Assembly (NCBI GenBank): GCA_905178155.1
Contig: CAJINV010000001.1
Span: 14,632,142-14,696,141 of the forward strand
Direction of reading: 5' to 3'
Length of the DNA stretch: 64,000 nt
DNA from: Amoebophrya sp. A120
Taxonomy: Eukaryota; Protista; Dinoflagellata
The notes beneath the pieces are model-generated. The model made no database searches. It saw only the letters and a list, made by a program, of their open reading frames with translations, and had not been told where the DNA came from. The position numbers and the translations under genes were made by a program. Of this stretch, positions 5,935 through 63,883 are shown piece after piece. Every line of letters starts with the position of its first letter. The stretch's first letter is position 1.

Positions 5935-6001
5935 GTCTGTTTAGTTTTAGTTCAGTTTCTCATAATGTCATTATGAGAAACTGAACTAAAACTAAACAGA
6001 C
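5935..6001. repeat. Perfect 33-bp inverted repeat with 1-nt loop
   Basis: GTCTGTTTAGTTTTAGTTCAGTTTCTCATAATG-T-CATTATGAGAAACTGAACTAAAACTAAACAGAC, with AGG on both flanks. Confidence 0.95.
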
Positions 6002-9207: not shown

Positions 9208-12200
9208 CTACGGGGCTTGGTTCACGTGATCCATCCCCCTGAAGCCAATCTGCTTGCGGATGTGGTCTCGTATCATCTTACAATTAGTTTTTTCGTACTC
9301 CGCGGCGATGTTCCTGCCTGGGGTGACTTCTTTCGCGATTCGCCACAACCGGGGTTTGTCCTTGATCTGTAATACAATCGTACGAATGTTGTTTGCCACT
9401 GTTCTTGGTATTCGCTCCAGCTCCTTTTGGGGAACCACTATATTATCTTCTTCTTCGTCTGTAGTTGGTAGAACTGAATCTCAACCGAGTCTGCTTCTCC
9501 TACTCCAAACTTTCGACTTGAAATCGCGAAAATCAAATCATAAACATGATGATGATGATGTACCCAGCTGCGGGGTCTATACTGTAATTAAAAATTATCA
9601 GTGTTCCTGCGGTGCGCTGTCGCTATCTGATTGCACTTGATCAATGAGCACATAATGAAGCAAAAAATTGAAGTACGTTCTCGAGTTCAGTTGAAATTTT
9701 GTTCTTCGTGAAAGCCATGGAAAATTGCTCCTCCATGTATGACCTGGCACGGTCGCCGAATGTCGCTCTCCACGCCTCTGTGGTACCACCAAGATTTAAC
9801 CGTTTTTCTGCCATATCACGTTGCTGTGAAGTTGTTGTATCATTGATTAAAAGTACTTAGTTCGTCGCATCAACAACTCACCCCACGAACGTTTCGTCAA
9901 TGCTATGAATCTTATACACGACTGCGCATTTTCATCATTTGCACACGCACGCGGTCGCTAAGTAACGATAAGGCAAACGCTCCTCGACCTCGATGATGCA
10001 AGAGGAAGACGAGCAACAACATAATACAACGCTGGGCGTTTCCGGAAGTGGTATTTTTCATGAGAGAAGGAGCCCATGGCTGTGACCGTGCGTCAAAGGT
10101 GCTACATCTTTGCTGGACATAGTACGTTCCAAGATCATGGAACGAGCGGTGAGATATTAGAGAATCAGAAAAAATCCGTGTGAAGCAAAAACATAAGACA
10201 AGAATACGTGTCGGAGTGCGGAGAGAGTCTGAACTCTGGATTTCAACACGTTGAAGTCTCTTCGCAGTAAGCGGAGCTCTTGCCCGTGGTCAGCACGGAG
10301 GTCATCAAAACGCCCCTCGTGGCGTTCTTGCCTGTTTTCCAGCGCCGATAGGCGCCCCTCTAGTGCCACGATGACGGCGTCTTGGAGAACATATGCACCC
10401 AAAAACACACGACAACACTGACACTGTACTAGCTGTACGGATACACTATTCTTGCTGACGCTTGCGTATCGGTATCCTACGAAAAAACAAAGTGTTTACA
10501 GTTACACATTTACAGCCAATTCAGCGCCACAAATTTGTCTGCATGAGAGAGAAACCTTGCAACGCAGAAATCCTACGGGAATCAGAATCACGTACGAAGA
10601 AGGCTGCTAGAAAATAATGCATATCCGGCATGGGCATGACAGAGCTTGTTTGTCCTGCTTGTTAGCCTGAAAAGCAATGTCCTCTGTGTAACTGTAACAC
10701 TTCTTTCTTGCGATACTTCGTGCTGCGTTCTTATTCGAGGTGAAAAAAGTATGAACGTGGGGGCTTATGCTCATCTGGATCTTCTGTTGTGTAAATTTAG
10801 TCACGTGAATTATGCGCCGTCAATTGTTGCTCTTGCTGCGTTCGACTAGATATCATGACGCCGTCACAGCCTGACAGGACGAAGCTTGAGCTTTTTTGAT
10901 TTTATACAAAACAAAGGTACTATACATAGAGGGTTCGACGTTCAAGCAACGTCTGTCGCCCCCGCCGATCGCTTTCTCTTTAGTTCTCAACAAAGTCGTG
11001 ATCGCCATAATCAGACACTGAAGATTGTATTGTCACATCTGATATTAAAACTACAAAGAAACGTCGGTATGAATATTTTTTTTTTTTGACTTCGACCTCC
11101 ATGGGTGATATTCTTTATTTTTTCATCGTCCAGGTCCAGGCCCGGCGTCGCTGTAGTATCATACTACGAACCGCTTGCCGACACCAGCCATGCTCTTCAT
11201 CATCTCGATTATCTGTTTCTACGTGTCGTTTGCTTGTCGAACGCAGCGGCTTTTCGATTTTTCTATATAGAGGATTGAGTATCAACTCGTGTTGCTTTTG
11301 AGTTTGAGTGTTGCATTTGCATAATTGTTTTTTTTCACGTAGAGATGCCACCTCCGCACGGAGTTCCACCAGCTCCGTGGTCGTCTCGCCTTGCACCCTT
11401 TCCACGTCTTCCATGCGATCCCGCATTTCGCCCACTTCCTCGTCGATGTCGTCGCGTAGACGCGCAACATCGTTGCGTATATGCAAGTGCCGAATTCCCG
11501 CCCCTCCCCTTCAAAGTCAGCACATCGGGCGCTTTATTTGGATCAATCCCATCGGATTTTTCTTTTTGATCTTGGTCACACATCCGCACATAGTGACATC
11601 AGCGCAGATCATCTCTGCTGCAGGCAGTTCAAGCGACGCGACTGCAGGAAGCCTTGGCGCAGGAAAACGAATGCACCAGAGAGCCGCAACGAAAACACGG
11701 AGCAGGGCAAATCCCCTCATGATGAGTGGGTTTAGTTGCGAGCTGCCTTCTGCCACTGTGATTCTGATTTATTTCGCCCCAATATGTGGCCTATTTTGGT
11801 CGTTCTTTTATTTTGGGATTCGAACAAATTTGAACAATTCGCCAGAAGCAGTCGCGCTTCTAGAATTTAGTAGGGGGAGTTGCACTTTCTGGCAAATTTC
11901 CACGACCTGTGGGCTCGCCTGCGCCCAAGACTGCAATCCCTCTCGTGAAGGGGAGTGCGTCCACGGTATGGCGGTTGGCCTCTACACACAGCCTACCCAT
12001 CTTTGTTTGGCCTCGTTTCTAAAATCGGCGACTTCGCGAGGACGCTGAAGAGACGACGCGACCTCACGAGCATTTCCATTTTATTTGCAATTTTGCTGAT
12101 TACAAGCATAAGCAAAATCATTTTTAACAGCAGAGTGAATTTTTTCAGTCCGCCTAGACGGGAACCCCAAGGGCGAACTCGCTTATACCCAGCGAGGAAG

Positions 12201-12906
12201 GCGGCTCCCGGGTACCCCAGAAACGGGGTGGCTGTTATTTGTGCGCGCAGAGTGAAAACCTAATCTCAACTTGAGTTGCTTTTGCGCCTCTCCTCGCGGT
12301 TTGCTTCTTCCGCAATGCTTAAGAGGGCAATGCCAATGCTTAAGGGGCAAACCCTCTTACTTTGCCAGAGTGTGCATGGAAGTGCTCCTTTCTTTCGCTA
12401 AGCAGCGCGCATAGTGCCATTCTTTTCTTTCGCTATGCTTCTGACAAAGTAGGACCACTTTTTTTTATTCATCACAACAGTGCGCGCTCAAACCCCATGG
12501 ATTCGAGCAGCGGCTTGCTCGTCTGGGTTGTTCTTTTTCATCTTTTCTCACCGGCTTGCTCACGCACATGTTAGCAATGAGGAAACTAAATACGACTAGC
12601 TCTGGCGTGAGGCTACGCTTTTTGCTCTATGGGGGGAGCTACGAGCTGGCTTGATGGTGGCACGCCGCACGCGGGCAGCACATGATGCAGTGCTCGTCCG
12701 ACGCAGCATTTGAAAGTCAGAAAATACTTGCTGCTGCGCCAAGCGGTAAGAACAATAAAGTAAAAATTGAAAATTCATTGGGGCGCAGGTAAAATATGAA
12801 TAATCCGACGCGCTGATTGCGAGGAGGGGCAGGTGCATACGCAGGTCTCATATTTTGTGTTGCGGATCGCTACTGCGTTCAAGCCTCCAAGTAACGTCCC
12901 CGCCAT
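9208..12906 (-). CDS. Multi-exon coiled-coil protein with small C-terminal helical (HeH/Rho_N-like?) domain, paralog B
   Basis: Exons: last ~9460-9208 (QIKDKPRLWRIAKEVTPGRN...IRKQIGFRGMDH), 9823-9677 (147 nt, QRDMAEKRLNLGGTTEAWRATFGDRARSY...KISTELEN), 10380-10208 (DAVIVALEGRLSALENRQER...), ~11510-11340 (acidic coiled coil). The tentative start at 12906 (MAGTLLGGLNAVAIRN) resembles paralog A's start. The 5' exons are uncertain; an alternative start with a signal-peptide-like stretch lies at 11720. Confidence 0.65.
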
Positions 12907-14412
12907 TGCTTGTTGCTGCTGTTTCTCCTCACTGCTTCGTCTAGTTATCCACCTTTCGGCACAAACTACGACCCACACACTTTGACCTGGCTGCGAGAAG
13001 CACAAGCAACGACGTCCATATCTGAGCAGAGCGAGTTAGTTAATTACGAGCTTCGCAGGAGCGTTCTATATATCTGTAATATTGATGCGAGCCCGGCGAT
13101 AACCTTGTTTCACATTGCCCCACTGCCCCAGTGTCACTGGCTCCGTGGTTGTGGCGAACTTCCAGTTATAATTCTAAGAGTGCAAAAAAAAACCAGCTGC
13201 CGAAGTCGGGTTTTCTTGCTTTTTCACCATGTGAAAAGTGATAGATGGTAGATGAGGAGGTCAAAGTCTACGATCAAGGAGTTATTGGCAAACTACTTAC
13301 TACAACTAGTATGCATGTGTCGAAATGCTACAGCCGACGGTTACCATGGCGCGACTTTCTGCTGGGCAAAATACGAACGATCTCGATGAGTCTGTCAAGT
13401 CCACGACAACGACTCACGACCCTCCCGATACAAAGTAGTCGGCGAGGCAATAATACAATAGTTCCCACTTACTTACTCCGCGACTCGTGCGACCACGAGC
13501 GAAGCTGCGCCCGTTCTTTATTCCTCTTGATGGCTGGATATCGAATCGAGAAATAATATCTTCGGGACAGGAATTGTCTTTCGTCAGGAGTCTACTTACA
13601 ACTGTCATCATTGAGCAGGATATAGTTTCTTTTTTTTGCAAAGAGACACGACCCCGAGCGTTTCAGTTTCAGGAGCGAGCGCTCTCCGATCGTGTTTCGC
13701 CGCGGGTTGCGCACGTGTGCATCAATTGGTCGACACGACTAGAGCATCGATCGATGCTTGCGCCGCGTTGGTCATACAAATAAAATAAACTACAACGCCT
13801 GAACCCTATTAAACGAATCGAAGTTTCGTCGGAGAGACCCACTCCTCCTGCTTGGAATTGCATCGATTTGCACATACATCATGGACGCAACGAGCAGAGG
13901 CACAACTGCCTTTCTCTTTTTGCGCGACGTGATTCGCCATATATCTATCTTTTATTCTTTGTTAAACTCATTCGGACGTTCCTGGTCTTTGTTGGGTATT
14001 CTTGACGCGTCGTGCCTGTTTTTAGCTTTATCTTTGTGACGCTCCACAGTCAATCTCACACTGTAAACTAAACAAACAACACGGCCGTCTTCAAGTCTGA
14101 CGCTCCAGATTGTTAATACGTTCTTGAGGGACTTCAGCTACATATACAGGAAATCTATCTATCAGCAACAATATTAAGAAGAAAACAGACACTGAGACAA
14201 TTACTTAATCGAGTTTGTGATGAGTCGAGTTGACGTTGAGTAGGCAGAAGTAGCTGCAACATTACATTCGTATACACAGTGGAATAAGTAGGAGCTTCCG
14301 CGGACTTATCGTCTGTTGCTGGAATAGGAATTAGAATTACACTTTTCTTGAAGCTGGAATAGCTCCTGAGCTCGCTGTTGATATTGTAGCTTTTCAACTC
14401 ACTAGTTGCACA

Positions 14413-17400
14413 TCAGTGATAAATTGTACGTCCATTCTGCATCTTCCCTTTCGCAATCCAGTGTTGGATTTTCGTACACAGCGCAAAATGAGAATGGCAA
14501 TGGAATTCCTCCATGCCTCCACCTAGTTGTCGTGCCCTGTAGTACTCTAACAATGGCGTGACCTCCTTGTTGTATGCGACGAGTCTTGCCTGAATCTCGT
14601 GTGCCGTGTCGCCGGGCCTTTGCACAAGCGCCTCACCTAAAAGAAAATTTTAAGTCCAGTATACTATTTTCTTTTTTTATTACTACGTTCATTGTTCGTT
14701 GCGCACTATAGAAGCGCGGTCGTGGCTGCAGGTCTCGCAGCAGGGAGATGATCTATCATGCGCAACCGTTTTTAGCGAGATAAACAGAAAAACACTTCGC
14801 AGCTTCTACTTTGTCATGTCTCAGGAAGATTGAGAACTGCAACTGCACTTCACAGAATATGTCGAATGCATTTCATCATGAAGGTACCGGTGACGTCGTC
14901 GCGCATGTACTCTGGTCCCGCGGTAAGCGATTTTGGCGACAGTATCACAGAGCAAAACGGCTCGCATAGTATGGCGAAAATAAGGCCCTTGGGCTATACT
15001 ATAGATTGACTCATGATCATACCAGAGCCGAGAAGACATACAAAAAAAAATGGAAGACGAGAACGCACTCATCGTCCCAAATGCCTCTATAATGCCCGAC
15101 GCGATCACGACCACATGCACCTTACGAAAAAAGAGCAAGCTATGTGCCACTTTCTGAAACGCAATCTCTTCATCGTTTCTGCTTATCTATGTCTGGCACT
15201 GGCTTAAGTGTTTCGGCATGAAAATTCAGAGAAATGAACAATAAGTAGATGACATGAAAGGACGAGCCTCAGAAAAGGGCTACGTTGCAAACTACTACGC
15301 GACTCCTCTTCACTGGCCTAGGCGCCGCGTTTTTGTGGTACAGCCTGCCGGAACCCAGGTGTATCCACGTGCCCTGCATCCTCGCCGCGAGAACCTGGCA
15401 AAAGGTACCATCGTTTCTGACTCGGCAGTGAGAATGTTACACATTCGCACTATTTGCATGCAGATGCACATGGAGTTTTTGCATTCTTGGCGTTTTCTAG
15501 TCCGTTCAGGCACCACCTTAAACCTCTTCATGTTCAAACAAAATCAATCTTCCAAGTGCAACACTCACGAAAGAGAAAGACGAAAACCTAGGCGGCATCT
15601 ACCTCGTTGGCTGCCACGAGATTTATCACCGTGAGACTATCTCCGTTCTTGTCCAAGACTGCGCCAAGAGCCCGCGCTTGCCCGATTGAGCGCGGGAACC
15701 CATCTAGTACAAATCCCGTGTGTAGTTGCGACGTGGCGTCTTCTATTATGTGCGACGCCACAATGTCGGAAACTAAGCCTCCTTCGTCCACTTGTTGTTT
15801 GGCCCTGGTGAAATTTAATGCTTGTTTTTGGTTGAAAATCAATGTGCTCAGAAGAGCTAGAAAAAGATCAAGAAGCAATACAAATCAAATGCAGCTCATG
15901 GATAAGAGAGTTACAACAATAAAAGCATTTGAAGTAAACTACCTAAGACAACTAAAAAAAGAAAGCACTATGCTAAGAAATATTAAAATAGTTCCTGTTT
16001 TGAAATTAATTAATCCATTGCCTAGCCGCAAAATAATAGGAGCGACCAGCCAGATGACGCCGGCAACGTACGAGCACCTGTTCTGTTTCAGAAGTGCTGC
16101 AGTGAAATTACTTACGGCCGGAAATGAGCTTGCCCGCGATCATGCAGCCCAGCCCCTGCTATAAATCAACCTCAAGATGACGACTGAGGCCAGTAACTTC
16201 GGCCATGCGAAAATAACCATAACGCCTTTCCTTTGCGTTTGCACTTTTCAAAGAAATACCAATACAATAAAAATTCATTCTGCCGTTTAAACAAATAAGA
16301 ATACCGCTTTCCAGCAGGGGTCTTTGCTTTAACGGCTTGTCGGAGAGCATCGTGTGCAAAACCCCCTTAGCCACACAAGATAATCCTGCTTTTGCACTCG
16401 CGCTTGCATTTCTTTGCACACCCACACAACCACAGACGGAGGCTCAAATACAACACAATTAACAAAACATGCTTACTATGGGAATAAAGCGATTATTTTA
16501 TATGTAAATGTATAAATGAATGTGAATCATTCCTCCGCATCCGGCCTCCCTGATTATGAAGATTTGCATTACAATCCTCATCATCATCATCAAGAAGCAC
16601 AATTTGTGCAAGTCGGGAAAGCATGTGAATGGAAGGGCAAGGAACGCACGAACACGAAGTGAGAACAAATAGTCAGTCACAGCTTCGCATGAACAAGCAG
16701 AGCGCAAGAAACAAATCAAGGAAGGGATAAGGAAGAAGTAAAGTAGAGCTTCGGACACTGACATGCTGAAGGGGTAGCTACAATCTACTCGCTCTTGTGA
16801 TTGTGTTGTTCCAAAACGATCGAAGGTGAGCGGGAAGACTCCTCTCGCATCCTGCTGACTGATCCTAGAAGAGAAAGGTAAGAAGAGGAAGACGAAGAAG
16901 AAAAAACAAACAAAATTGACATGCTAACAAGAACCGCGGCACGCTTCATCGCCTCCCCCTGTGCAGCAGGCCACAGATGGCTGTCACGAAGAGAAGGTAG
17001 GTCAGGCGGACAACAAGGCGCCATCCCCATCGCCATTTTCTCTCGACTAGTACTTGTGATCGGGAGTGGCCCTGCGCCCCACAGGTTGATATGTAAGCGC
17101 GCCAAAAAAATTCAAGTACCCACCTGAACAGCTGCGCAGCAGAAGCGATTTTCCGGCAGCATGCAAACCAGTTCTCAAGGCCAAGTCCGAAAAGACGGGC
17201 CCACGCGTGCTAAACTACTAACTGTAACTTCATCTGGATCTGGACAAGGAATAAAAGGATAAAAAAAACTAAGTAGCACAACTATCAATCTACATCATCT
17301 AGAAAGGAAAGAGAGTGCGCGGCGTACGCCAAATAGCATCATGCGGAGCGATGATGAATGAACAAAAACAAATGGTAAACTCTTATCAAACCAGGGGCCC

Positions 17401-20400
17401 TGGAACGAGGCGCCCTGACCCGAGCTTCAGCGCCATAGCCGAAAGAGTAGAGAAAAGCAAAAGAAGCAGGAGGTCCTCATTTTTTCAACGTGCTGTAAAA
17501 ACATAGTTTTTTGCTTTAGATTTCGCATCGCCGACCCATTGTCAACCCATGAGCAACCCACCAGCGACCGACCAAGTCACCCACCCAATGACCAACCACA
17601 TGACTTACCAAATGACTCACCAAGTAACCAACGGACACTAATGCGGAAAAGGAGTTTGCGGTGGTAAGCCCTCTGGTAAATCTGCGACACCCATCTGAAG
17701 GGTCTCCGGTACAGCCCCTTCTTGCGGCGTCCGGCAACTCCGCCACAAATGGGTTGAAGGCTCTAGTAGATGATCCGCCGGCTCACCAACATGGAAAGCG
17801 TTGGAGATACGATCTGCGCGCAGGACAGGAGAACAGCCTGAGCCTGGGATCCGCCGCCCACGCCAGCCTTGCGTTGTGTGTTATCCATACATAAGCGCAA
17901 CAACCCGAAACGCAGAGGACGAGGGCGATGAACTATGATTATCTACTCGGAGCGAGGAAGGAAAATCCATCGCCCGGTGGCGTCCCATTTTCGTCCTGCC
18001 TCCTCGCTAAGTACGCGGAAACGGTGACCCTACCCCATGCTAGGGAGGAGAAGGAAGCGGAAAGCTGACACTCCCTGAATTACAGTCATTTTGTGACTGT
18101 GATACACAAAACCGACACGGGATCATGATATTAGTACTTATTAGAGTCCTCCAGCCAACATGATTATATGCATCACCAATACATAGGCCTGAGGACGCTA
18201 ACATACTGACTCGCAGCTTAGCTTCTCTTTCTACTTTCCAAATCGATTGCAATCGCGATCCCGGCAACGAACTTTCAGCTAAGAGAAGTCTCGCCCCCGA
18301 GTAGAGGCAAAGAAAAACATAAACACCTACAGAAACAGAAGTTCTATCGGATATTGATAAACATTCTTGAACTTTCGGACCCCCGCGCCCCCTTTGAATC
18401 TTCTCAAAAAAAACGAAGGGCGCGCCGGACATTCTTCTCAAGAGAAAAAGAGCGGGCGCGAGAAAGTTGAGGAATTATTAGCACGACCCACAGCATTTTT
18501 CGGATTCAACAAGGGGTCCGGGGACGCACTCCCATTTGTTTAGTAATATTTATCGACATCCGATTCAATATCATTATATTAGCCAGGAAGGTAATATGCA
18601 TCCATGAGCAAGCGCAGATCACTAAATACGGCATCAGGGGGGTTATGCTCACGATACACGCAGTCCCCAGTAATTACCACCGGAATGCGTAGACTTTGCG
18701 TCAACACCCGAATCGCCGCCCTGCGAGTGATGAATGCGAAAAGATTATTTTCCCCCATCGGCAACTTATGTATCATCAGCGTAACAACTGCGGGCGTGGG
18801 CATCAGGATCTTTGATCAATCTTGATCAACTGTCCGCGTCGGTGTCGCCATTTTTAATCTCGCGAGGACAAAAAATTGAATCAATTTCAACACTTTCAAA
18901 ATAAAAAAATAATGTATCTATTTATTAGTATTACGGTCTGCCTGACGCTGGAGCCCCGAATACGACGAAAACCCGACGGCCTGACGGACGACAGTTCACG
19001 GGTGGGGACAGTGCCACGCGTCGCAGGTGCCGGTCTACTAAAGCTGCTGCTATTCGTTCAACCTTGGTGTAGCTGCTGCCTTTCCTCTCTTTCGTCGCAC
19101 CGCTCTGCGGGAGGGGAAGGTGGCGGTTCATTTGGTCGAAGCAAGAATGAAGCAACTGCTTTAGTTGTTTTCGCCTTTGCTGCAAAAACTGCCAGTTTCG
19201 GAACGCAGACAGGACTCTGGCTTTCCTTTTCTGCCGCGCAAGCCGGCGGAGGTGTACGGAAAGCACCCTAGCTCGATAGAGCGCGCCAAGGTGAACAAGT
19301 TCTAGTCGCGACCGCGGTTTTCCGATTTGATCTTGTTCTTGACCGAGGTAAAGCCCCTTGCAGATGAAATGGAATTTCAATTGGTGCAAGTTGTATGAGG
19401 GAAGGCGTCCGGACAGAACCGCGTACCTGGCAAGGACAAGGAGTTGGAGTTTCCAAGCACGCCAGATGTCTCCAAGCTGCTTTCTCATGCGACGGCGTCG
19501 ACCACGGACCAGGAGCAGGTGAATCCTCAGAAGACTTAGTCGGCAATAAATCACACACAACATCAATTCCTTCGTCCGCCATGCAGTGTGCCCCTCCTCA
19601 ATAGTGGTTCTCCTTGTTTTTTCCGCGACTCGCATCCTGAGTCCGCTCAAGTAGTTCTTGAAGAGGTATGTGAGCACGACGCGACGAAAGGCAACCGCAA
19701 TCCGAGCGCTTCTGTATCTCTTCGCCCGAATGTTCCGTAGCTGGCGAGAAAGAACTACTTTGGCCATCATCACGCCCGTAAATGCGGCAATGTTCTTGAT
19801 GCGGAGTTGCCGTTGCCTGAAGACCACGCTTCTCATTTGCAACGCGGTCACTCTGCGACTATGAGCAAACCGCACGAGGTGCATGTACAGCATTGTTCGC
19901 TGCAGCCATCGCCGATAACGCAGCTCACGAAGCGTAGTTGCTCGCTTGATCCGAACGCTTTTCAATAGCGACGAGATTTTCAGCTTCAACTGCGCAACCC
20001 GAACGAAAGCGTCAAGTAGCCGTAAAGCTCGGTCTCGTCGTAGAGCCCCAACCCATTTTCTCATGGCGATCTGGAGACTCAAGTTTCGCTCGCACTGAAG
20101 CCGTCGCCGGTCTTGGAGCCAACTGCTGCACCGCAAGAGGAGCAAGTGCAGGAGCCAGAACATCAAAAAGGCGCTTGCCAGCGCAGAACCGACGGGCACG
20201 GCCACGGATATGATATACTCGACCACACGATCCTCAATAATTCCTGCAACATGGACACCGAACCGAGCTTGCTCCAATATACGTTGTGCTCGTGCATCTT
20301 CACCTTGGGATTCGTGGCCCCTTGCGATTCGTGGCATTCTTTGCCCGGCGCGGGAGATGTCACCCGGACTGGAGGTGGTAGTGGAGGTAGTTCGCTTCAG

Positions 20401-22592
20401 AAATTCCTCATCTGCATCTGGCCCTAGGAGTTGGGGAACAACAGGGCGGTTCCTGCTCAGAATTTCTGGTCTAGGTGTTGCCGCACCAGAACTTTTATTT
20501 GTACCAGCAGGAACAGCTTCTACTTCACCTCCAAGTGGTCCTGCAGCTTGGCCCTCCGGACTGATTATCGCATCGTAATTTTGTGGAATCCTCTTTGGGT
20601 TAGTGTTCTTTCTCCGAGTAGATGGCGACGGCGTTCTTTCGTTATGCGTTGTAAAATTCACGTCAAAAGCACTCGCGTTTTGCACCGCAAGGGCGAAGTC
20701 CAGATCGTTTTGGCTGCTGTGCTGGTTGGTCGAATTCAGAACGCTGGTGTAGTTAACACTGTTGGAGGAGGTCGATGTAGCGAAATCTGCACCAGAAGGA
20801 TGCGCAGGTGGAACGATCGCAGCTCCTGCTGTTGTTTCTTCATTTCGCTTATTTATTCCAGCACAACCACGAGATCTAGAAGGAGAATCACTGCCGTAGT
20901 TCGCCGCTACTTTACTACCAACACCCATTCCGAAGATCGGATCGTCGGACCCAGCTTCTCCTTCAATTCGGCGTTTTCTTATGCGGTTTTCACGGTCTGC
21001 TGCTGCTGCGTCTTCGCGGATCGCGTTCGGATTGATGAGCATTTGCAGGGGCGAAAAGGAGTCCAGGCCGGAAGTTGGTTCTGTCGTGTGTTGAGGATGT
21101 AGTCGTCGACGTCGTGTATGTCTCGGATTATACTAGCGCCTCAGTCACAGTCATTCAGGGTGAGCGAAAAGGGAAAAGATTTCGCGCAATGAATTAAGGA
21201 TAGGATTCTTTGCAACATCAACATCTTCTAAGTACTATAGTTATATTACAAAAATCACACTGTACCATCCAGAAACAATATCTTGGGGTCGGCGATGAGC
21301 TCAAGCGCAACTCGTATTGGTGTTCCTGTTTGATGCAGCCGGTGGAGTTCAGGCACCTGCACCTCGACGCTGTCGTCTTCTACATCTACTGAAAAACCAA
21401 AACCACTTTGCCCGCCTGCCTCTACAACTGGTGTAGTAGCTTCTAACAGGAACCGCGACGAGAACGAGAGTCCAGCAGTTTGCGAAAGTCCGTGTCCAGC
21501 AGGCCAGACCCCGTTTTCGTGCAGCTGCAGACCCGAACAAAAAAACAAGTCGTGGTGAACTACAAGCACGGTTTCTTCTCCTTCATGGTTCCTAGGAAGA
21601 TCTTCCGGCCCCCTCACCGAGTCCGCTGACGGCCGAGCAGCAGCACTACAACTGTTACTAGCCGGATAACCACGGTCCCCCGCATAGTTGTTCTGCTTTG
21701 CGTAAGCACTTCTACCCCCCGCACGCGCACTGCTCTCCTGCAACTGCTTATCATTTGAGGAATTCGTAAGAAGAAGTGGCTCTGGTGTCGCAAAGGGACA
21801 AGTTGCAGCATGGAGCCGGACGACGCATGGCAGCTTACACAGGTTGCGAGGAGCATCTCGCTCAACCACGTCGATAGAGCTGTAGTGTTGGTGGAAAAAG
21901 CAGACGCGAGTGTCTGTTTCACGTGCTTGTCCAGCTCCAATTGCGTTATTTGATGAACTCGGTCGGGGTGTGGCTGTGGCTGCAGTCCATAACGCGCAGG
22001 GACGACATACGTGCTCGTGCACCTGGACGAAGGGGTCACTGTACACCAGTGTGGACCGGCGGGCGGCCTTACGACGGCGTTTGCCGACTCCTTGATTGTG
22101 ATGGTGCACTTGATGGTAGTCCTGCGTGCTCGCAGTGCGCCAGAGCAATGGGTACCACGCAAGATCGGCGCTAAGGCCAGGTACCAGCTGCTGCTGCTGC
22201 TGCTGGTTGTGGTTGTAGTTCACGTGCAGGACCAAAGCTCGTCCATCTTCATCAACACTCTTGTTGACTTCATCATCTCGAGCTTGACCGAACTCAAATG
22301 GAAATGCTTTGTCACCGGTGGGCGCGCGGTCACCGCGCGCCTCTTCTGACCATTGCCAGTGCCCCAGAGCCGTCCCCGCGTCGTCTGCCACAGAGCCGCC
22401 CCCGAGGAGAGAACTAGGCATGCCAGTAGTGAACTCCTCGCTCCAAGGCTCGTCCCATACGGATTGGACTACCTCCGCCAATGCGTTCACGGCCGCCGTC
22501 GCCGCTTCAGGTAGGCTAATTCCGAAGTGCTTCTGGCAGTCCTCGTTCGCCTGCAGAAGCAGCGCTCCTGCCATCAAAATGGGCCAGGCCAT
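14413..22592 (-). CDS. Chimeric multi-exon protein: N-terminal hydrophobic leader, ABCG Walker-B fragment, basic Trp-repeat (Sfi1/IQ-like) region, divergent adenylate kinase domain
   Basis: GT-AG introns 21081-21265 (ILFLD-E-PTSGLDSFS), 18721-18934 (FGAPASGRP-AAIRVLTQSLRIPVVITGD), 15395-15602 and 14637-14887. ADK exons: 15804-15603 (GGLVSD...GFVLDGFPRSIGQA), 15394-15320 (RMQGTWIHLGSGRLYH), ~14936-14888 (PKSLTAGPEYMRDDVTG), 14636-14413 (EALVQRPGD...RLVAYNKEVTPLLEYY). Splicing between ~18650 and 15805 is unresolved. Confidence 0.75.
17545..17632. repeat. Degenerate 12-bp minisatellite (ACCAMATGACYC-like) inside the large ADK intron
   Basis: ACCAAGTCACCC/ACCCAATGACCA/ACCACATGACTT/ACCAAATGACTC units. 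Confidence 0.6.
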
Positions 22593-23150
22593 GATTTTAT
22601 ATTTTTTTTTCGATTTTTTGCGAAAAGCCAAACAGTAATTTTCGTACGATTTTAGCTACGAACTGGAACTGCAACAATGCACTATCAATTACTTATCTCA
22701 TGTTAAAGAAACGCATCAACATGGCTACGACGTGACTCAAGCTTCTAGTATAATTGCTCTGACACCCAGGTGGGCTCTCGGCTGCATCGAGCGATCTCCT
22801 GCAAACGACCCAAAATACGAAACGAAGGAAATAACATATCGCGTGACCCGGACGAAGAAAGTCTACGAGTGTCAACTTAGAAACAACAACCCTCTCCGAA
22901 TTCGATCGAACAAGAAAACGCTGATGCAATTGCAATTCCACGTTAGTCTTAGTATCCAATTATCTAATATTGATGCTCAGCGATTAATATAGAACGATTT
23001 TTGCAATTGCTGCTATGAATTTGAGTGCGCGCGCCACAACGATTGTACGATCCCCTCAGCAAGTGCAAGATCAAACTACGTACCAATATTAAAAATGTCT
23101 CAATACTATTTATCTTTGACTTTGCGGTCATGAGGTTGCATTTGCAAACA

Positions 23151-24000
23151 CTAACACGCAAGGACAAACCAGAAAACAGTCGCCCTCGCGGGGGCTTTTA
23201 TCAGTGCAACACCCGCATCGCGGTGCTGACGCTGAGGCTGACCAAGAGAAAAAGTGCATTCCCACATGCTGCATACACTCCAGCAGCCATATTTAATCAG
23301 TCTGCGGCGGCGCGGCCGCGAGGGCGCGACCAGCGTTGCCCAACCCGACGCGTGGCAAGCTTCCGGACCGGCCGGCTCGCTCGGACTCTCACTCTTCACT
23401 GAAGCTGCCAATCCCACAAAATGGGGTGGCCGCGCACTGCATCCGGCGGCAACCTGGTCCCGGGGGGGGCGAAACGCCGAACGACGGCGCAGGGCCTGAG
23501 CGGACGGACCGGGCGCGTTCTCCCAACGAACGCACCAAGCCACGCGGCCCCTGCTGCCGGTGGGCCCTGATTTGGCGCCCCGGTCGGAGGGCGCAGGGCC
23601 TGCCGGCCCTGCCGCTTCACTTCTGTGCGTGGGGGGGGAGAGGCGCCGGCGCTCGGGGAAGATCTCCGAAGTCAGCGCGCCAAGGTGGCGCGCGGGCCGC
23701 TCTTCCTGAAGCAGCCGGAACTCTTCTTGCAGATCAATCTTTCGCGAGTTCCCCCCTCAATACCGGCCGCCACGACGAACCTGCTCCCGCGCCTCTGTGT
23801 GTCCTCGGGGGCCGCAGAGCCAATACATAGGGCAGGGCGGCTGCGAATCCGACAGCGAGCCGCGGCGCTTCCCTGAAACTCCAACTGAGGCAAAGCCGAA
23901 CCGGGATAGGCAGGCGAAGGGCCTCGGGCTCGGGCGGGAGTGTATCTATTCTTGCTCTGCACGTAGGCCCAACATTGTTTCGCTCTGTACGTAGGCCATT
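23151..24000 (-). pseudogene. GC-rich decayed third copy of the three-exon family (G-psi)
   Basis: 23782-23735 encodes RFVVAAGIEGGTRERL, an ungapped match to G1 RFVIVPESGGLTPEKL and G2 QFVITAEVGGITHEDV. 23291-23251 encodes YGCWSVCSMWECTF, matching G2 VGCFGLFSVWKEGF. It sits downstream of block X exactly as G2 does. Confidence 0.6.
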
Positions 24001-24098
24001 TTCTAGTGATGTTTTTGACCTGTCTGCATCGGAGCAGAAGGTCTTGCCCGACTTGAATTAAAATTCTGCGCCGGCCAACAACTTTGACTGAATAACGC

Positions 24099-24460
24099 GA
24101 ACGCCATGATGTAGAGACAACTTGCGCTACTTTTCGCTCGATTTCCATACTAGTCGCCTTTTTGCGCTCGATTCCGACGAAGTCGATGCACGACATGGGG
24201 AAAACGCAATCACCTCTCATTCTTCTTGTCATGATAGATCTCGTCCGGATTATGTATCTCTTGATGACTTTTTGGATCGAAAGTACGAGCAGCACGCTGG
24301 AAAATAGCGCCTTATTAACTGTAATTAAAAATCTAGAAGTCGAAACACGGCATTTGATTCCAGCTCTCAACGTGCTCTCACGACGAGTGGTGCTAAGTAG
24401 GATACTTGCTCCTCATAGCAGCATATACCAAGAATTAAAATTTGCTCTTGATGTTCTACA
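24099..24460. repeat. Non-coding block X, copy 1 (upstream of G-psi)
   Basis: Aligns with 34933-35289, e.g. TTTCCATACTAGTCGCCTTTTTGCGC.CGATTCCGACGAAGTCGATGCACGAC and CACGGCATTTGATTCCAGCTCTCAA. Confidence 0.9.
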
Positions 24461-25394
24461 TCCGTCGCTAAACGAACCTATTTGTGTTTGGTGGTCTGCG
24501 TGTCTGTGCAGTGAACGAGGCACGTCGGGTTTCCTGTACTTTATGTTTGTAATTGCAATTGGCAAGCAGAATAAAGTACGTGAACGCGCCCGGACCCTCG
24601 AAAGACAAAGCCGAAAGACAGCCTATTCCGCTCAAACCTAAGCGGTATTGCGTTGGGCCCTCAACTCAGCGAGTCCGAATTTTACATCCTAATCCTGGTA
24701 TTGCTTGTCGTTTGAAACAGAAACTCAAGTCTGACATTTTACGCGACTCGGGTCTCCTCCCGCGGATCTATCTTTATCTTGGCAGCGGGCGTGGACCCTC
24801 TGTTTCTGTAGCATCACAAGCTGTAAATTCTAGTACATTTTCCAACAGCAAATTCGAACAAAAAAAGCTGTGCTTTTCAATTTAGAGACAGCTTTCTGCT
24901 TGTGCTTGTTTTGATTTTCGCTCATGATTTACAACGCACGCGATCAGAGGCACTAACTCTAAGTGAATTTTTCCGCGCTTCGGAATTACAACGAAAGCGA
25001 AAGGGAAAGCGAACGCGAAGACGGAGAAGATACAGACATATTAGAGAGTACGTAGTCACTGGATACAAAAAACGGATAAACATTTTATCGCGATATTTAC
25101 ATTTATTTCTTTGCACTGATTATCTGATCATCATCATCTACTGCAGGGAGGTGTGTTCGACGACGTGGAGACCTTTTTTGAGAAGATTCCGAAGGAAAAA
25201 GAAAGGATACGACCGATACATCTAGCACTAGATACAGTTCACCTTCCTTGTCTCGTCATACTTCATTCGGTGTGTTCCTGTAGGGTCTCGCGATGACAAT
25301 GAAAATATTTCGGTAACGAGGAAGATGCGAAACAATGTAGACGGGACGAATAAGCCACCTCTTGCTCTTGTTTGTCTTCATCCTGTCGACTGTA

Positions 25395-27951
25395 TCAGCT
25401 CCTTCTGCTTGCGTGCGATTGCGGCGTCCGGAAAGAAAGGCTGTCCTCCTGCTCATTCTCGACGGCGCGGCTAGCTGCATTCCGATTTTCATCGTTGACG
25501 CCATCTTCGGACTCTGACGACCGCGGGTACCAACCATCGTAACCGTGGGCTGTCCGCCAGGCTTGTCTTTGCGCAGCGGAAGCAGCCTTTTGCTTCTTCC
25601 TCGTGGAGAAAGCCGAATGGTACGACTTCAGACTACTGTAAGATGGCCGCCCCCTGCGTCGCTCGTAGTGGTGAAGCTCCTCACTTTCGTAACCCTCATC
25701 CGATGTGTCCCCGAACGGTAAATCGTGCACCTTCCACATTTCGGCTACATCGTCCCAGTTCACGTTCCACGGCGTTCTCGGTTTCTTGTCTCGGATCCAG
25801 TTCTTCCAGTATGTTTCAAACTCTTTTCGAATGTTGCCGAACTTGTCCAGAGCCTGGACATCGTGATCGGTACCAATACTGCGGACCAGCTCGCGCAGGG
25901 GAGCAATCGTCTCCGGGAAATGGTTGCACTGGAATCCCAACTTCGTAAACTCGTCCTGAAAGAACTGCAGGTCGTCCGCAACACTCCGCAGGTCGTTCTG
26001 CAGCCGTTGTTTCACACGTCCTATCACGCAAGCAATTTCCTGGAGGAGGTCATTGGTCGTGACGCTGGACCCGAGGTGAAAAAATCGCGCGGAAATTCCA
26101 ATCTGTCGCCCTAGCACGGGAACGAAAGTAGCCCTGATTTCCGCCATGGCACTCAGGTTCTCAACTCGGAACGGGTTTGTGATGGTCTCGCAAAAATCAC
26201 GAATAAGGTTCTTGTCGTCAGCAGCTGCTCCAAAAGTGTCGCCATCCTCAAACTTCTGGTCCTGCTCCAGCTGATCGCACGTCCGCATGACATCGCGCAC
26301 CACAAGCTTCAAGATGGCTCTTGCTGTTGTGTTGAAGTTGGTCGCAAAATAATTGACCCAAGAACGTGATCGCGAAAATGCTAAATTGTCAATAAATATA
26401 AATCATATTTTGCACGTCCACGCAGCACCACAGCATTGAGTTTCCTATTCCTTTTCCTATGTTGGTGTCGTATAATCATAAACTGTTGCAGGTGCTGACG
26501 AAGAACAAAGACAAAACGCCCGGATATTTGTCAACCATAAAATGTATCGACTATTGACGCAAAATGCTTCTGAATCTGCGAGAAGACCACGACGCAGCGC
26601 CATCACAAGCAGCACACAACTCATCAACATCAATAAACGAAAGATACCCTCTGGGAATGGGTCTCGGCCACTGGACAGAGTCAGCCGGCCATCCTGACCC
26701 CGGGTCCGCCAACCAGTCACGAGCCCGAAATTTCCCCATTCGTCCTTCAAAAGGGTCTCGGTCAGCCACTCCGCGTATTCCTGCGCGTTCATTTCTGCAG
26801 CAGCGATTATCGCTTCGTAGATGCCCTCGCGCTCACCTTCTTGATGGTGCTGTGGGGCAAAAGCAGGATTAAAGCACAGGAGGTCTTTCAAAAGCTCCCG
26901 AGCGAATTGCTTTCTGTGGTGTGTGAAGCGGAAACACTTACCGCCGGTCTCAGCCTCGTGTTTTATCCACTCGGACTGCGGCAGCTCGAATACGGCACGA
27001 ACGATGTTCCAGTAGTTCTCCCAGCGCTCAAAGGGCTCGCTGTACCCCATGCAGTTCCTGGTGCGGTACATGCGCATGCTCATCGTTCTCTCGCAGTTCT
27101 GCTCTTTGGTGGTGTTCTCCAGACTCAAACGAAAGAACATATTTTCGTCGCACGGTACACATCCACCAGCAACTACATTCGGTAAGAACGCATACAGCCC
27201 GTCGTAGAGAAAGCTCCGCGCTTGTTCCAGGGTCAAGTCGTAGAGGGTCCCTGCAAGGTTTTCGTGTACGTGTCTGAGTTTGAGAGCGGCTGCATTAAAA
27301 TTCAGACTCTTGTTATCTTCGTGAAACAATATCATCTTTAAAAAAAAGGGATATGGTGCCCTTCAACAAAAAAGTTAAAGTACCATGATCACCATGACGA
27401 TCTTCGCCATAATTCACCAGAAGATTGCGGTCTATCCACTCTTCAGCGATCACACCGGCGGGGCACTGGAGTTTTTCCGGTGTCAACCCACCGCTTTCCG
27501 GCACAATCACAAAGCGGAGGGCGCAACCCTCACCAGGTGGAATGTCATCGTCTGGATCTAGGAAACCAACATCCGGATTCGACGAGCTGGATGCCTTCGA
27601 CGCACGATCGCCACCGGTCGTGTGAAACCCTTCGAATTCCATGCCCTCTTCCACCTCCACAGCCTCTTCTTCACTAGCACTTGGTGTCGCAGCAGCTCCA
27701 TCCTTTACAGCCAGCCACTTTACCCGGTGAAGCGGCGGAAGTTTCTGCGATTCATCAAAGAAGCACGAGATGAACTCCAGCGCATTGAGGTGCTTGACCC
27801 GAAAAATCCTGGTGCTGTCGATGCACTTCATCACGCTGTGCCCCGCTAAGTTGAAAATGCGAATCTTTCGCTCGTGCGTTACACAGGCGGTCGCGGGCGC
27901 ACTGCTTGTTGCAGGCAACGTCGGGCAAGCCGGCTTCTTTGGAGACGGCAT
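25395..27951 (-). CDS. Unknown three-exon protein G1 (~699 aa) with ubiquitin-like-looking N-terminal header
   Basis: Exons 27951-27384, 27250-26648 and 26323-25395 joined by phase-1 GT-AG introns give 2100 nt in frame; all three exons align with G2. Confidence 0.8.
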
Positions 27952-28411
27952 CGTTTCTCTTTCTACTACTTAGCTGCTCTGGTACTACGGTTTCCCATTT
28001 TTCCTTTTCTCAGACTGCTTGCCAAACTTCATGACGTAAACGATACATAGCGACTGCATGCTTGCGACGTTTTCTAGAGTCTCTAATCGGGTGATGAAAC
28101 ACCATGGCGCTCTTCTGCGTGCTCATCTCGTAGTTGTAATGTACTTGTATCTTCTGCGTCGACATCGAAGTGGAAATCGTATATAAAGTACTTAATTCAA
28201 TTCATCACACCAACCCACTCAGCGTTGCTCTTCCGCTCTTCTGAGCTCGAGCTCCCTCGAAGTCGACAAGCGTGCCTTGACAAAGTAGAGCTAGAGACTT
28301 AGATCTCCAGAACGCGGCGAAGTAGAGATTTCACTTCTCATCGCTGCGCGCCCCTCCCTCGATTAATTTGCCCACGGCCCACACGCCGGGAAACTTACTT
28401 GCCTTCGGGAC

Positions 28412-32143: not shown

Positions 32144-34782
32144 TCATCTCCCCTCCTGCGAATCAGGTGTCCGGAACAGGGCATCGGATGGCTCCTGACT
32201 ATCACGTCTGGTAGCACGGTGGAGGTCGGGCTTCGGTTTCTTCCTCCCGTGCACCCACTCGTAGCGCTCGCTGCTCATGGAAAGCCGCTTTCTCGGCGAG
32301 TTGCTTTTACTGCGCTCCGACTTGGCCGAGGCATAGGACTTCAACGAGCTGCGGTTGGAACTCGGCTGGATAAACCTGCCGTCCGGGCCGATAAATTGCT
32401 CCGCGTCCTTTTCGGGTGTGTCGCCGTCCGCCAAGTCGTGCACCTTCCACATCTCCTTGATGTCGGACAGGTTCAGTTCCCAGGCCATTCTCGGACGCTT
32501 CGAGCTGATCCACTTCTTCAGCTCATCTTCAAAATCCTGACGAATGCAGAGTTCGTCTAGCGCGTCGACGTCGTGATCCAAGCCGATGCGTTTCGCCAAG
32601 TTTCGGAGAGAATCGATGGTTTCTGCGAACAAGGCAGTGCAATCGAAATCGCGCTTCACAAATTCGTCCCGAAAAAGCTGGAGATCGTCCGCAATATGAC
32701 GAAAATCGCGCTGCAGTCGTGTTTTTATTCCCCGGATGATGCGGGCCACCTCTTGCAGAACGTCCTTGGTTTCGTTCGTCGTGCCGCGAATGAGAAAACC
32801 GTCGATCAGCCCAAACTCCTCCGTGACCCTTGGCTGCACAAAACGCGTTTTGAGTTGCAGTGTGGTTGCCATGTCCTTCACACGGAAAAGTTTGTGCGTA
32901 ATGGTGTCGCAGAAGTTGTGGAGCGCGCTGTCACCAGCTGCAGCTCCCCCTTGTTCCGCGTTTTCGTTCAGTACATCCCGCTTCCGCAGAATGTCCGCGA
33001 CGATCACCTTGACATGACCTGTGGTGAGCGTTGTGTATGTCGTGTTGGCAGTCATTGATATTACTATTAGATTGCGTCGATTTGAATTTTTTGATTCTTT
33101 TATTTGTATGTTGTTCTTGTTACTATTCCACTACAATAATTCTTGAGGTCCAAGTTGTGCCCCGTGGTGTCATCAGTAGCAGTAACACTCACAGACACGA
33201 CACTTAAGAAAATTGGCGCTCACAAGAGCCACGTGTTTGATTTTACAACATCAGTTAAATTGGCGTGAGGCTACAAAGAGGAAAAGCAAGAACCCTCTAT
33301 ACTAGGTAGTCACTTGCTACTTACCTTTGTGGTGCGGCATGAGGGTATCTCGCGGAAGATCGAATCCTTCCTTCCATACACTAAAAAGTCCGAAGCACCC
33401 AACCGGCTCATCCTCGAGAAAAACGCGGCTTTTCACCCAGGCGCCGTATTCTGGAATGGTCAGATTTGCCGCTTCCACGACAGCGACGCACATGCGGTCG
33501 TCCTGCTCCACGCTTGGAACGCGTTGCTCGGTGTCTCCCGGGAGCGCCATGTCGAATAAATCCGGCTTGAAGTACATGAGGTCGTCAAACAGCTCCCTGG
33601 CGAAGGGTTCGCGATGGCGGTGAATACTGAAGCACGTGCCCCCGCTTTCGCGTTCGTACTTGAGCCACTCCGATGCAGGTAGTTCCCAAACGGCGTGAAT
33701 CAGGCTCCAGAAGCAATCCCAGCGCTCTACGGGTTCGCCGTAACCAAACACGTCCAAACAATACTTCTTTCCCGTCCGGCGCAAAGTAGAACCCTGAGAA
33801 AGCAGCGAGTCCCGCTTGTCTCCTTGCGAAGGATTACTATCACAGGGCACACATAGTCCCTTGATCTCGTCGGGCAGCGCGATGAAGACACCGTCGTACA
33901 ACAAACTCCGTGATTGCTGGAGTGTCAGAGATCGCAAGGGCAAGGATTCACCGTTACCACCTGCAAATGCAACACATATATTTTTCTTTAATAAAGTGAT
34001 AGTATCACTTTCAATTTTTTGGTGGCGGAGATGGTACACAACAAAACCTCTGGTCGACGTATGCTATGGGTCTACATCTGTGTCGTCTGACCAGACAAGA
34101 ACTCATATTTTAATTACTTATCACCCTCCCCCTCGTCTTCGTGGCCGCAAAATAAAGGGTCAGGGTGTACATATTCATCGAAAAACAATTGCAATTTATG
34201 AAAACAAAGACGAAGTCATAATCTATGATCAAAAAACATAAGGAGCAACAAAACCAAAGCGGTTGCAGTATGTTGGCGAGCATCAAAGTCCATGTCCACA
34301 TGATCGAAAAACGCTCTCTCATCAGTACCTCGTCCTTCTCCTTGTGTCTCGGTCTCGCCGCCGTAGTACCTCGGGCGCCCAAAAACTAGGCGGCACAGAT
34401 ACTTGTAGTAGTTCTCGTTGGGTCGACGCTGCACATCCTCATGCGTTATCCCACCGACTTCCGCGGTAATTACAAACTGAAACACAAAACGATCAACATC
34501 AGGAATTTCACTCTCCGGCTCGAGAAAAGCTGGCTCGTCATCGCTCAATGCGGCTGCATCGTCGACCACCAGCCATTTGACCCTGTGCAGTGGCGGAAGC
34601 TTTTGACTGCTGTCAAAAAAATCTCCGATGATCCCCAGCGTCGACAGGTGTTGGACCTTGCGCACCTTCGTCGTGTCGATACGTTTTTCAATACGCAGCG
34701 CGGACAGGTTTTGCACTTTGATTGTGCGCATTGTCTGTGCGAATTCATCGACCTGCCGTCGTGCGGCTCCTGGGCTCGACAT
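32144..34782 (-). CDS. Unknown three-exon protein G2 (~654 aa), paralog of G1
   Basis: Exons 34782-34329, 33960-33325 and 33018-32144 joined by phase-1 GT-AG introns (G|GTACTG...TTGCAG|; G|GTAAGT...CACAG|) give 1965 nt in frame. Motifs shared with G1: FFD.SQKLPPLHRVKWL, LTL.Q.RS.LYDG, ERW..YW/FW, ADDLQ.F.DEF, EMWKVHDL. Confidence 0.8.
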
Positions 34783-34932
34783 TTGAACTCTATGTATCTA
34801 TATATTTGATGACGTTGTACTTGGAGTCTCAATCTTCCAAGATGAAGTTGACGTAGATCCTCGACCTCGTCTGACGCTACATGAATAAAAACTGTGCCCT
34901 TCTACTTCTGAGTGTGAAAAGCGCCCGAAGCG

Positions 34933-37072: not shown

Positions 37073-37127
37073 ACGCTCACTCACGCGTAACGTCATAGGC
37101 CCTATGACGTTACGCGTGAGTGAGCGT
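37073..37127. repeat. Perfect 27-bp inverted repeat with 1-nt loop
   Basis: ACGCTCACTCACGCGTAACGTCATAGG-C-CCTATGACGTTACGCGTGAGTGAGCGT. Confidence 0.95.
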
Positions 37128-37913
37128 CTTTCTCGCCTTCGACAAATAAGTTCTCAATTAAGTTGCAAAGACGACGTCATCTCGTTACATTCTGCGCTCC
37201 ACCTGGGGCCGGCGGCCTCACCAGCGTCACAATCGTCATAACCGTCCGGCGTCCTCCGCCGTGCACTCACTTTCACTCGTCGCCCTCCCTAGAAGCAAAA
37301 AAGAGCCTCGTCTCTTTTAGAAGGATAGCTTTGCTCTTTCGAAAGGCTTCGACACTGGCTGCAATGATAATGAAGCTACCGTGTGAGCTAACTCGCAGAA
37401 TGCTTTGGCTATGAGAAAGCTCTCATTTTCTTGTTTGTTCTCAGAGTTTTTTGGTTTCACTTTTGCGTCAAATTTATTGTATTGTAGTCGTCCTCCTCGC
37501 TTCAGTTTCACCAAATACCAGCATCAAATTTATAGACATGATGAAGTAGAAAAAGAGAAACTCAGGGCTGCAAATAACAGATGTCATGTTTTTACTCGCA
37601 ACCCAATCTAAGATGAAACTAGATTCCGTCAAAAATTGATACAATGTGAAAACGTAAATTATTGAAAATATCATGTAGTTGCCAAGCATCTGAAACCGTC
37701 ATACGCATACCCCATCTTCAAACAATATGTATCCAAAACGACCAAATTTCATAACTTTTGAAGCGACACCATTGAGTACCGTCACCGTTGGCTTTAGAAG
37801 TACAGAGACAGACTAAAAAATCTTTGCAACTGAAACAAAAAACTTGTAGTTGTACGGTGAAAAATGTTAATAAGGCCAAAAAAAAACAAAACACTTCAAC
37901 CAACTCGCAACAC

Positions 37914-38069
37914 CCAACCAACTACCCGACCCCAACCAACTACCCGACCCCAACCAACTCCACGACCCCAACCAACTCCACGACCCCAACCAACTCCGCG
38001 ACCCCAACCAACTCCGTGACCTCAACCAACTCCGCGACCTCAACCAACTCCGCGACCTCAACCAACTCC
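37914..38069. repeat. 18-bp minisatellite (CCAACCAACTCCGCGACC), ~9 units
   Basis: Read directly; variants change progressively along the array. Confidence 0.95.
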
Positions 38070-38091
38070 GGGGCCGCGACCTCTGGCGGAA

Positions 38092-38265
38092 ATCCTGCAA
38101 CTTCGCATCCTGCAGCTTCGCATCCTGCAGCTTCGCATCCTGCAACTTCGCATCCTGCAACTTCGCATCCTGCAACTTCGCATCCTGCAACTTCGCATCC
38201 TGCAACTTCGCATCCTGCAACTTCGCATCCTGCAACTTCGCATCCTGCAACTTCGCATCCTGCAA
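38092..38265. repeat. 15-bp minisatellite (ATCCTGCAACTTCGC), ~11.5 near-perfect units
   Basis: Read directly; two adjacent units share an A>G variant. Confidence 0.95.
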
Positions 38266-38370
38266 TCATCCTGCCCCATAATTTCCTGCCCCCAACTGCC
38301 CCCCTCCCCCAATACGCCCGCCCCGAGGTAGGGTCGCCAGAATACCTCTGCTAAAAACCGCGCTGCGGAA

Positions 38371-63480: not shown

Positions 63481-63658
63481 CTAGTAAAATCATTTTCATA
63501 TATTTTGTTTCACTTGCATCAACATCAATTATCAAAAAGAGGGTCATATTAGACCGACGCTGCGCTGGTGGCGGCGAGCGCCCGCATCCAAGCACAGCTC
63601 AATCTCTACCATGACTAGTTATAAGTCAGAAAACCCATTATTTAATAGTATCCCGCAA

Positions 63659-63845: not shown

Positions 63846-63883
63846 GGAATGCAGACAAAGCGCCCAAGCTTCTAAGCGGCGAC

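Follow-up and report, generated by a model that had tools for sequence, protein, structure and literature searches.

Structure and transcription of the chimeric gene

The minus strand of the window, the 64-kb stretch of DNA analysed here from the marine parasitic dinoflagellate Amoebophrya sp. A120, carries a gene of eight exons (Table 1). Their exact translation equals P0003, a protein of 1,374 aa deposited as 'unnamed protein product, Amoebophrya sp. A120'. The minus-strand open reading frame 21255-22655 has the C-terminal end RVALELIADPKILFLD, followed by GTV-stop; EPTSGLDSFSPLQM lies within the open reading frame 18931-21132, and the spliced frame runs on into it from RVALELIADPKILFLD across a GT..AG intron of 185 nt (21265 to 21081, minus strand), which interrupts a GAA codon after the G. 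The original prediction had described these open reading frames, the intron and the joined frame correctly, as the exact P0003 translation confirmed. In a codon-frame scan, the model frame was the best one in 5 of 8 segments, the exceptions being the linker and the two neck segments; the training set was small and differed from these in composition, so the scan carries no weight here.

Table 1 Features of the chimeric gene (window positions)
Feature	Position	Strand	Details
Orphan N-terminal region, 5' part of exon 1	21314..22592	minus	P0003 residues 1-427
Start of ABCG piece, Walker B VALELIADPKILFLD	21266..21313	minus	matches P0004 1025-1039; 5' junction 21313/21314
Donor-inherited GT-AG intron, 185 nt	21081..21265	minus	151/177 aligned letters equal the L001 intron
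ABCG D-loop EPTSGLDSF and deletion joint	21037..21080	minus	alignment to P0004 and L001
Rest of ABCG piece: low-complexity linker following the donor nucleotide-binding domain	20341..21036	minus	3' junction 20341-20337
Linker with predicted membrane helix	20107..20340	minus	helix residues ~731-760, window 20217-20130
Arg/Leu-rich repeat region, like the post-motor (neck) region of myosin P0005	18966..20106	minus	
Adenylate-kinase-like domain, end of exon 2 and exons 3-8	14413..18965	minus	residues 1147-1343
Exons 3-8	18719-18658, 16343-16305, 15804-15603, 15394-15320, 14936-14888, 14636-14413	minus	window and deposited model
Intron 3, non-canonical GT..CT, introner-type, 2,314 nt	16344..18657	minus	terminal inverted repeat of ~20 nt
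MITE-like element inside intron 3, 215 nt	18348-18562		18-nt inverted ends, 2-nt direct repeat

Read contigs from 4 of the 11 listed runs were compared with positions 16500-23500; X9, one of three raw RNA runs, contributed 0 reads and so is no test. The stretch 21081-21265 was skipped (join 21080/21266, CT..AC) in contigs of X3 and X6 and unskipped in the DNA-type run X1, and the same was observed for 18720-18933. Depth in X3 and X6 was zero across 16968-18137 and beyond 23052; given this zero intron and upstream depth, both runs behave like RNA. They represent two samples of one study, and their RNA status is presumed from an automatic guess, as none of the listed holders of the sequence is registered as RNA. 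A contig of 3,220 nt from X6 covers 22177-21266, 21080-18934 and 18719-18658, crossing both ABCG junctions, the internal deletion and two introns, and its loose end equals window 16314-16343, i.e. the next kinase exon. The two transcript checks proposed beforehand therefore gave positive results: the 21080/21266 join is present in X3 and X6 contigs, and a transcript, in the form of this short-read contig, links the ABCG hinge to the adenylate kinase exons. RNA-type contigs extend to exon 4 at most, exons 5-8 being known from the deposited model alone; all read evidence consists of short-read contigs, and X1 is possibly the source of the window itself. With the RNA type of X3 and X6 presumed, one transcript and one frame unite parts of unrelated origin, and the gene is expressed and intact.

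Outside the ABCG-derived piece, the parts of the protein differ widely in the relatives that they have. P0003 itself was the sole match to its N-terminal 466 aa among 1.84 billion representatives; residues 3-14 are hydrophobic and predicted, by hydropathy alone, to be signal-peptide-like. The chance of a 427-codon open frame is about 7e-8. Over the predicted membrane helix of the linker, Kyte-Doolittle 19-residue windows reach 2.08, and no relatives of the linker (20107-20340) were found. P0003 residues 768-1148 align to the post-motor region of the myosin P0005 (33% over 389 aa, pairwise E 3e-32), and the match is collinear: its score is 352, whereas none of 4 x 200 block-order shuffles scored above 228. 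The homology is confined to that region: Myosin_head is absent from P0003, and neither P0003 nor P0005 contains a strict IQ motif. A search of the neck region against proteins of 403-1283 aa returned 0 of 7,994 candidates. A protein atlas gave no usable match to residues 1-427 or 690-1145, a result that counts neither for nor against relatives.

The kinase domain was recognised by Pfam ADK (E 5.4e-31) and by comparison with yeast adenylate kinase (PDB 1aky, E 3.5e-33). Its closest known counterparts are the long-type adenylate kinases with a LID, such as the yeast enzyme: the whole domain aligns, and GFPR, the AMP-site arginine and the two C-terminal arginines are kept. Unlike yeast adenylate kinase, it is preceded in the protein by a predicted membrane helix and by a myosin-like region, to which it is fused. 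The P-loop Lys is replaced by Arg (R1157), the next Gly by Pro (P1158), the LID Arg by Thr (T1268) and a conserved Asp by Gly (G1309). These four residues are absent from their positions in the best 120 of 1,279 relatives; in this set, whose members are fairly related, K and R stand at the positions of R1157 and T1268 in 120 of 120 sequences. Lys13 and Arg123 affect kcat most in E. coli adenylate kinase, according to the accessible part of PMC11313852; we equated them with the chimera residues by motif through the yeast alignment. Judged by these substitutions, the domain is likely to be catalytically dead. No close kinase donor was found among the best 120 of 1,279 relatives (proteins up to 754 aa), where identity reached 47% at most. 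Between two kinase exons, the intron 15319 to 14937 (minus strand), taken from the deposited model, is a second non-canonical one and has AG..CG borders with a short direct repeat.

Elsewhere in the 64-kb window, a three-ORF orphan cassette is present twice on the minus strand (25398-27969 and 32147-34797; 33-39% amino-acid identity), in surroundings that contain duplicated non-coding blocks (28412-28846/35834-36256 and 24141-24413/34954-35228) and GC-rich islands. The cassettes gave no Pfam match above cut-off and no PHROGs match (0 of 8 proteins searched). Perfect palindromes with a 1-nt loop lie at 5935-6001 and 37073-37127, with arms of 33 and 27 nt, respectively. The minus strand also carries a low-complexity ORF of 2,367 codons with a GAS2 domain at its end (40926-48029), an MFS transporter (59589-61058) and the C-terminal part of an M16 peptidase (62164-63480). 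Repeat arrays, both tandem and dispersed, occupy 1-2050, 37860-38310 and 63635-64000; their units measure 41, ~100, 15, 18, 13 and 8 nt.

An ABCG-derived piece and its intron

The ABCG-derived piece extends from 21313 to 20341 (minus strand) and measures ~975 bp, or 262 aa. P0003 residues 428-689 align to residues 1025-1333 of P0004, with 218 of 252 residues identical, which confirms the ABCG origin proposed for this region; 27 of the first 28 aligned residues are shared, so the likeness is not due to chance. The size first given, ~30 aa and ~280 bp, was an underestimate, since ABCG sequence resumes after a deletion and runs to 20341. Those ~30 residues are the conserved part, and the remainder is the low-complexity linker of the donor, in which 191 of 223 residues are identical to P0004 and 623 of 718 DNA columns to the related locus L001 (87%, gaps counted).

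P0004, recovered by a search with P0002, is a 1,974-aa ABCG protein with the same A120 label, encoded on another contig. It carries the complete ABC_tran and ABC2_membrane set (Pfam) and belongs to the ABCG half transporters, as do human ABCG1 and ABCG2 and plant ABCG25. Compared with these, the chimera retains the Walker B and D-loop letters only. Walker A, the signature, the H-loop and the ABC2 membrane domain are all missing from P0003, which has no ABC Pfam match; the chimera therefore cannot be a transporter.

The rest of P0004 could not be credibly aligned anywhere in the 64-kb window. This agrees with the statement in the original prediction that no Walker A, signature or ABC membrane domain lies nearby, and it also argues against an ABCG gene that decayed in place, for which additional ABCG exons close by had been named as the telltale sign, or a retrocopy, having fused with its neighbours. 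The internal deletion of the piece does resemble those of decaying copies. The homology nevertheless breaks off sharply in mid-exon on both sides, the intron is kept, and the deleted stretch is not a donor exon, all of which speaks against these origins. Both origins are largely refuted, and we regard them as scarcely credible.

A metagenome scan gave 42 pattern matches, which were reduced to two loci, L001 and L002. L001 is a complete ABCG locus; its protein is only 91-92% identical to P0004, so that L001 represents a relative of the donor and not the donor itself. It contains an intron of 186 nt at the same codon position as the 185-nt intron of the window, 151 of 177 aligned letters being identical, and no intron-less form of the piece was found in X1 DNA. 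A homologous intron at the same position in this relative indicates that the copy was made from DNA, as had been proposed. The expectation that a donor gene with an intron at this place would be found was thus borne out as to the intron but not as to the locus, which is a relative. L001 and L002 share an accession prefix, and L002 is ~98.8-100% identical to the window, as against the 91-92% of L001 to P0004; a mixed assembly, a mosaic genome or a second ABCG paralogue are candidate readings of this contrast.

DNA depth in X1 was approximately doubled across the ABCG piece; the second copy present in this run has two non-synonymous letters, and both yield P0004 residues. An intact parent gene therefore exists elsewhere, as the full-length P0004 on the other contig and as the second X1 copy. 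The doubled stretch also raises the question of an assembly artefact, in which a collapsed repeat would have fused unrelated contigs via the ABCG piece. Such an error could be suspected because the evidence consists of short-read contigs, because X1 fragments into small unitigs over the two-copy stretch and because L002 starts at 19360, leaving the junctions outside its coverage. It is nonetheless highly improbable: differences from the donor are spread over the entire window copy, which also has a deletion of its own; a single RNA-type contig, from a different sample, bridges the complete join; and the A120 assembly had been cut where Nanopore reads flagged junctions (PMC7789003, in the part of the article available).

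The deletion within the piece replaced 57 donor residues, including the H-loop, by 2 residues, a net in-frame loss of 55 aa. Since the lost stretch sits inside a single donor exon, exon skipping or a retrocopy was excluded as its origin. Two 12-nt repeats in the donor, 168 nt apart and matching at 9 of 12 letters, bracket the deleted stretch; a match of at least 9/12 was found at 163 of 160,599 comparable donor positions, for a 12-letter window picked after seeing the data. From these repeats we infer that the deletion may have arisen by slippage or repair between short repeats. The piece has a dS of ~0.10 to L001, and identity is 33% for the myosin part and at most 47% to any listed match for the kinase; these differing divergences indicate that the parts of the gene differ in age.

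Junctions and proposed mode of insertion

The ABCG homology begins abruptly at 21313 and stops at 20341-20337, in mid-exon at both ends. Upstream of 21313 the donor continues as the ABC signature, both in L001 and in a loose end of an X3 contig at 21313. In X1, contigs run across both junctions and reach 47 letters (5' junction) and 142 letters (3' junction) into the ABCG sequence. The original prediction had the splice sites of the intron join two unrelated reading frames; this had to be revised, as ABCG sequence flanks the intron on either side and the true junctions are exonic, at 21313/21314 and ~20337-20341, each passing directly from coding to coding sequence. Excising 21313-20337 keeps the flanks in frame, which a 3' end at 20341 would not, and the alignment prefers 20337 over 20341 by just one mismatch and three matches. 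With flanks that remain in frame without it, the piece resembles a segment inserted into a single older exon, a reading that is plausible rather than proven. Protein and metagenome searches found no pre-insertion allele or orthologue, so the insertion into an older gene is inferred.

No microhomology was visible at the outer junctions. The longest word shared between the junction windows was 4 nt in direct and 5 nt in inverted orientation, against a chance median of 5, and neither terminal inverted repeats nor a target-site duplication rose above chance at the junctions. A near-tandem duplication of ~17 nt lies just past the 3' junction (20335-20302, minus strand), possibly as a repair scar. 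Helitrons begin with TC, end in a hairpin followed by CTRR and insert in AT. The ends of the piece do not look like this, and of seven hairpin-plus-CTRR sites in 12000-26000 none lay within 1.5 kb of a junction. DNA depth showed the flanks to be single-copy over 18606-20243 and 21414-23500 (90% likeness).

Transposable elements are nevertheless present at the locus. Intron 3, whose join is implied by loose ends of X3 and X6 contigs, has an inverted-repeat motif that fits the A120 introner motif given in the available text of PMC7789003; its 2.3 kb are long compared with the median intron of this genome, 247 nt. The MITE-like element inside it reached an X1 depth of up to 1,629, indicating high copy number, and is absent from L002, so that it appears to have inserted into the introner recently. 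As originally proposed, the ABCG piece could have been captured and carried here by a Helitron or a Pack-type TIR element; its ends would since have decayed or would lie farther out. The DNA-level copy with its intron and the TIR elements active at this locus would suit such a carrier, and Pack-TIRs take up gene pieces through template switching (PMC8277862, from the part available). The junctions themselves, directly coding-to-coding, without terminal repeats, a target-site duplication, a Helitron-like end or a multi-copy flank, make this origin unlikely; the word 'Helitron' is also missing from the main text of PMC7789003.

We consider it probable that ectopic repair placed a copy of a middle part of an ABCG gene, in frame and with its intron, into an exon belonging to an orphan gene that was older and already composite, where it is a passenger. 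A DNA break would have occurred in the host exon, and the ABCG gene on another contig would have served as the repair template, by way of end joining or ectopic synthesis. The 55 codons may have been lost in a jump from one imperfect repeat to the other, while copying or afterwards. Both ends of the piece would have landed in frame, and for this reason, we propose, the host gene survived. The host was probably composite beforehand, with its orphan N-terminus, membrane helix, old copy of a myosin neck and decayed kinase, and the ABCG piece is a probable passenger without transporter activity.

Selective constraint and relation to known chimeric genes

Over 249 codons, the ABCG piece showed a dS of 0.099 and a dN of 0.079 to L001; the ratio of 0.80 (bootstrap 0.46-1.47) is indistinguishable from neutral. 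L002 matches the window over 19360-12717 at 98.8-100%, with 8 amino-acid differences in the kinase exons (pN/pS ~0.68), including L1202 and V1203, both invariant in the best 120 of 1,279 relatives. The kinase exons (15804-14413) differ from L002 at 14 of 651 letters, compared with 10 of 3,637 in introns 2-7 (Fisher P 1.4e-6), and this excess affects synonymous and non-synonymous sites alike; a haplotype patch, conversion by a paralogue or selection are candidate readings. In-frame indels were dropped as proof of selection, because 3 of the 4 gaps in the intron likewise had lengths divisible by three.

These values raise the possibility of a transcribed pseudogene or proto-gene at this locus, compatible with the same DNA origin, whose protein is idle and whose frame has stayed open through luck and youth. 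The near-neutral ABCG piece and the kinase changes relative to L002 are consistent with it, as is the alteration of 10 of 43 invariant kinase columns; intron indels that are often multiples of three weaken the argument from in-frame indels in the same direction. Other observations argue against an idle protein. The old myosin-like and kinase parts and the 427-codon N-terminus contain no stop and no frameshift, and kinase columns are retained in a graded manner (33 of 43 invariant, 63 of 90 conserved and 26 of 100 variable ones). None of the 11 indels relative to L002 is exonic, a weak point (P ~0.11). On balance, an idle protein is the less probable reading.

Retention of the ABCG piece for a role of its own, for example in binding the donor transporter or its partners, is quite improbable. 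Its native frame and splice sites are preserved, and it carries 25 chimera-specific amino-acid changes, compared with 10 and 6 in the two donors. Those changes, however, include the donor stem branch and so cannot be polarised; just 28 folded-domain residues are left, the remainder being low-complexity linker, and there is no signal of purifying selection. From its sequence, the product is predicted to span the membrane once; the ABCG linker would form a disordered spacer on one side, and a basic helical region together with a non-catalytic nucleotide-binding fold would lie on the other.

Collectively, these data describe a genuine chimeric gene of several sources, of a kind already known in flies and plants. 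Three marks of a DNA-level chimeric gene were found: an intact parent, a kept parental intron, and one transcript in one frame. For a fourth, selection on the new protein or a function of it, the values are the near-neutral dN/dS of the ABCG piece and the pN/pS of ~0.68 in the kinase exons. For a basal dinoflagellate it is unusually well documented, with the donor, the common intron, the breakpoints, the internal deletion and the splice all visible. A Pfam label such as adenylate kinase on gene models of this type may mislead. Neither this gene nor any chimeric gene of Amoebophrya was described in the papers listed by a literature search with little coverage of subscription journals. In PMC7789003, as far as its text was available, 'chimer' refers to assembly checks alone, and the three gene ids are absent from the supplementary files available for PMC6176090 (10 files) and PMC9478091 (5 files).

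Strain-specific genes make up 54% in A120 (PMC7789003, available text), and this locus points to a concrete mechanism by which some of the many unexplained ones in Amoebophrya may have arisen. As a tentative extension, which we hold to be doubtful, a real share of strain-specific orphan genes in this genus might stem from the serial in-frame accretion, into long permissive exons, of intron-bearing DNA pieces taken from distant genes. If so, the succession of orphan sequence, ABCG piece, membrane helix, myosin neck and dead kinase would preserve this accretion layer by layer.

Among known systems, Pack-TIR elements (including Pack-MULEs) and Helitrons also capture gene pieces at the DNA level via template switching, often giving chimeric transcripts, according to the accessible part of PMC8277862. 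Unlike their cargo, the A120 piece lacks element arms, a target-site duplication and flanks of high copy number, and it is ~4x the median Pack-TIR cargo of 224 bp given in that source. The Drosophila gene Hun, as described in the available part of PMC1463047, offers a parallel to the A120 gene: illegitimate recombination put a partial gene copy at a distant site, where it became attached to unrelated sequence and is expressed. Hun keeps the 5' part of its donor and recruited intergenic DNA, whereas here an internal, non-functional piece lies in mid-protein, and at least three sources, differing in age, can be recognised in the A120 gene. The tinkering loci of Drosophila (10.64898/2026.08.09.743762, in the part available) consist of dispersed gene fragments shorter than 2 kb in which non-coding donor sequence is retained; as is the case here, these are transcribed anew and, in chimeric proto-genes, are able to form one chimeric protein. 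Their fragments cluster in transposon-rich hubs that were defined genome-wide, whereas a single gene with transposon-free junctions is described here. If serial accretion holds true in Amoebophrya, it would be a protist counterpart to these tinkering loci, giving the parasite new membrane proteins.
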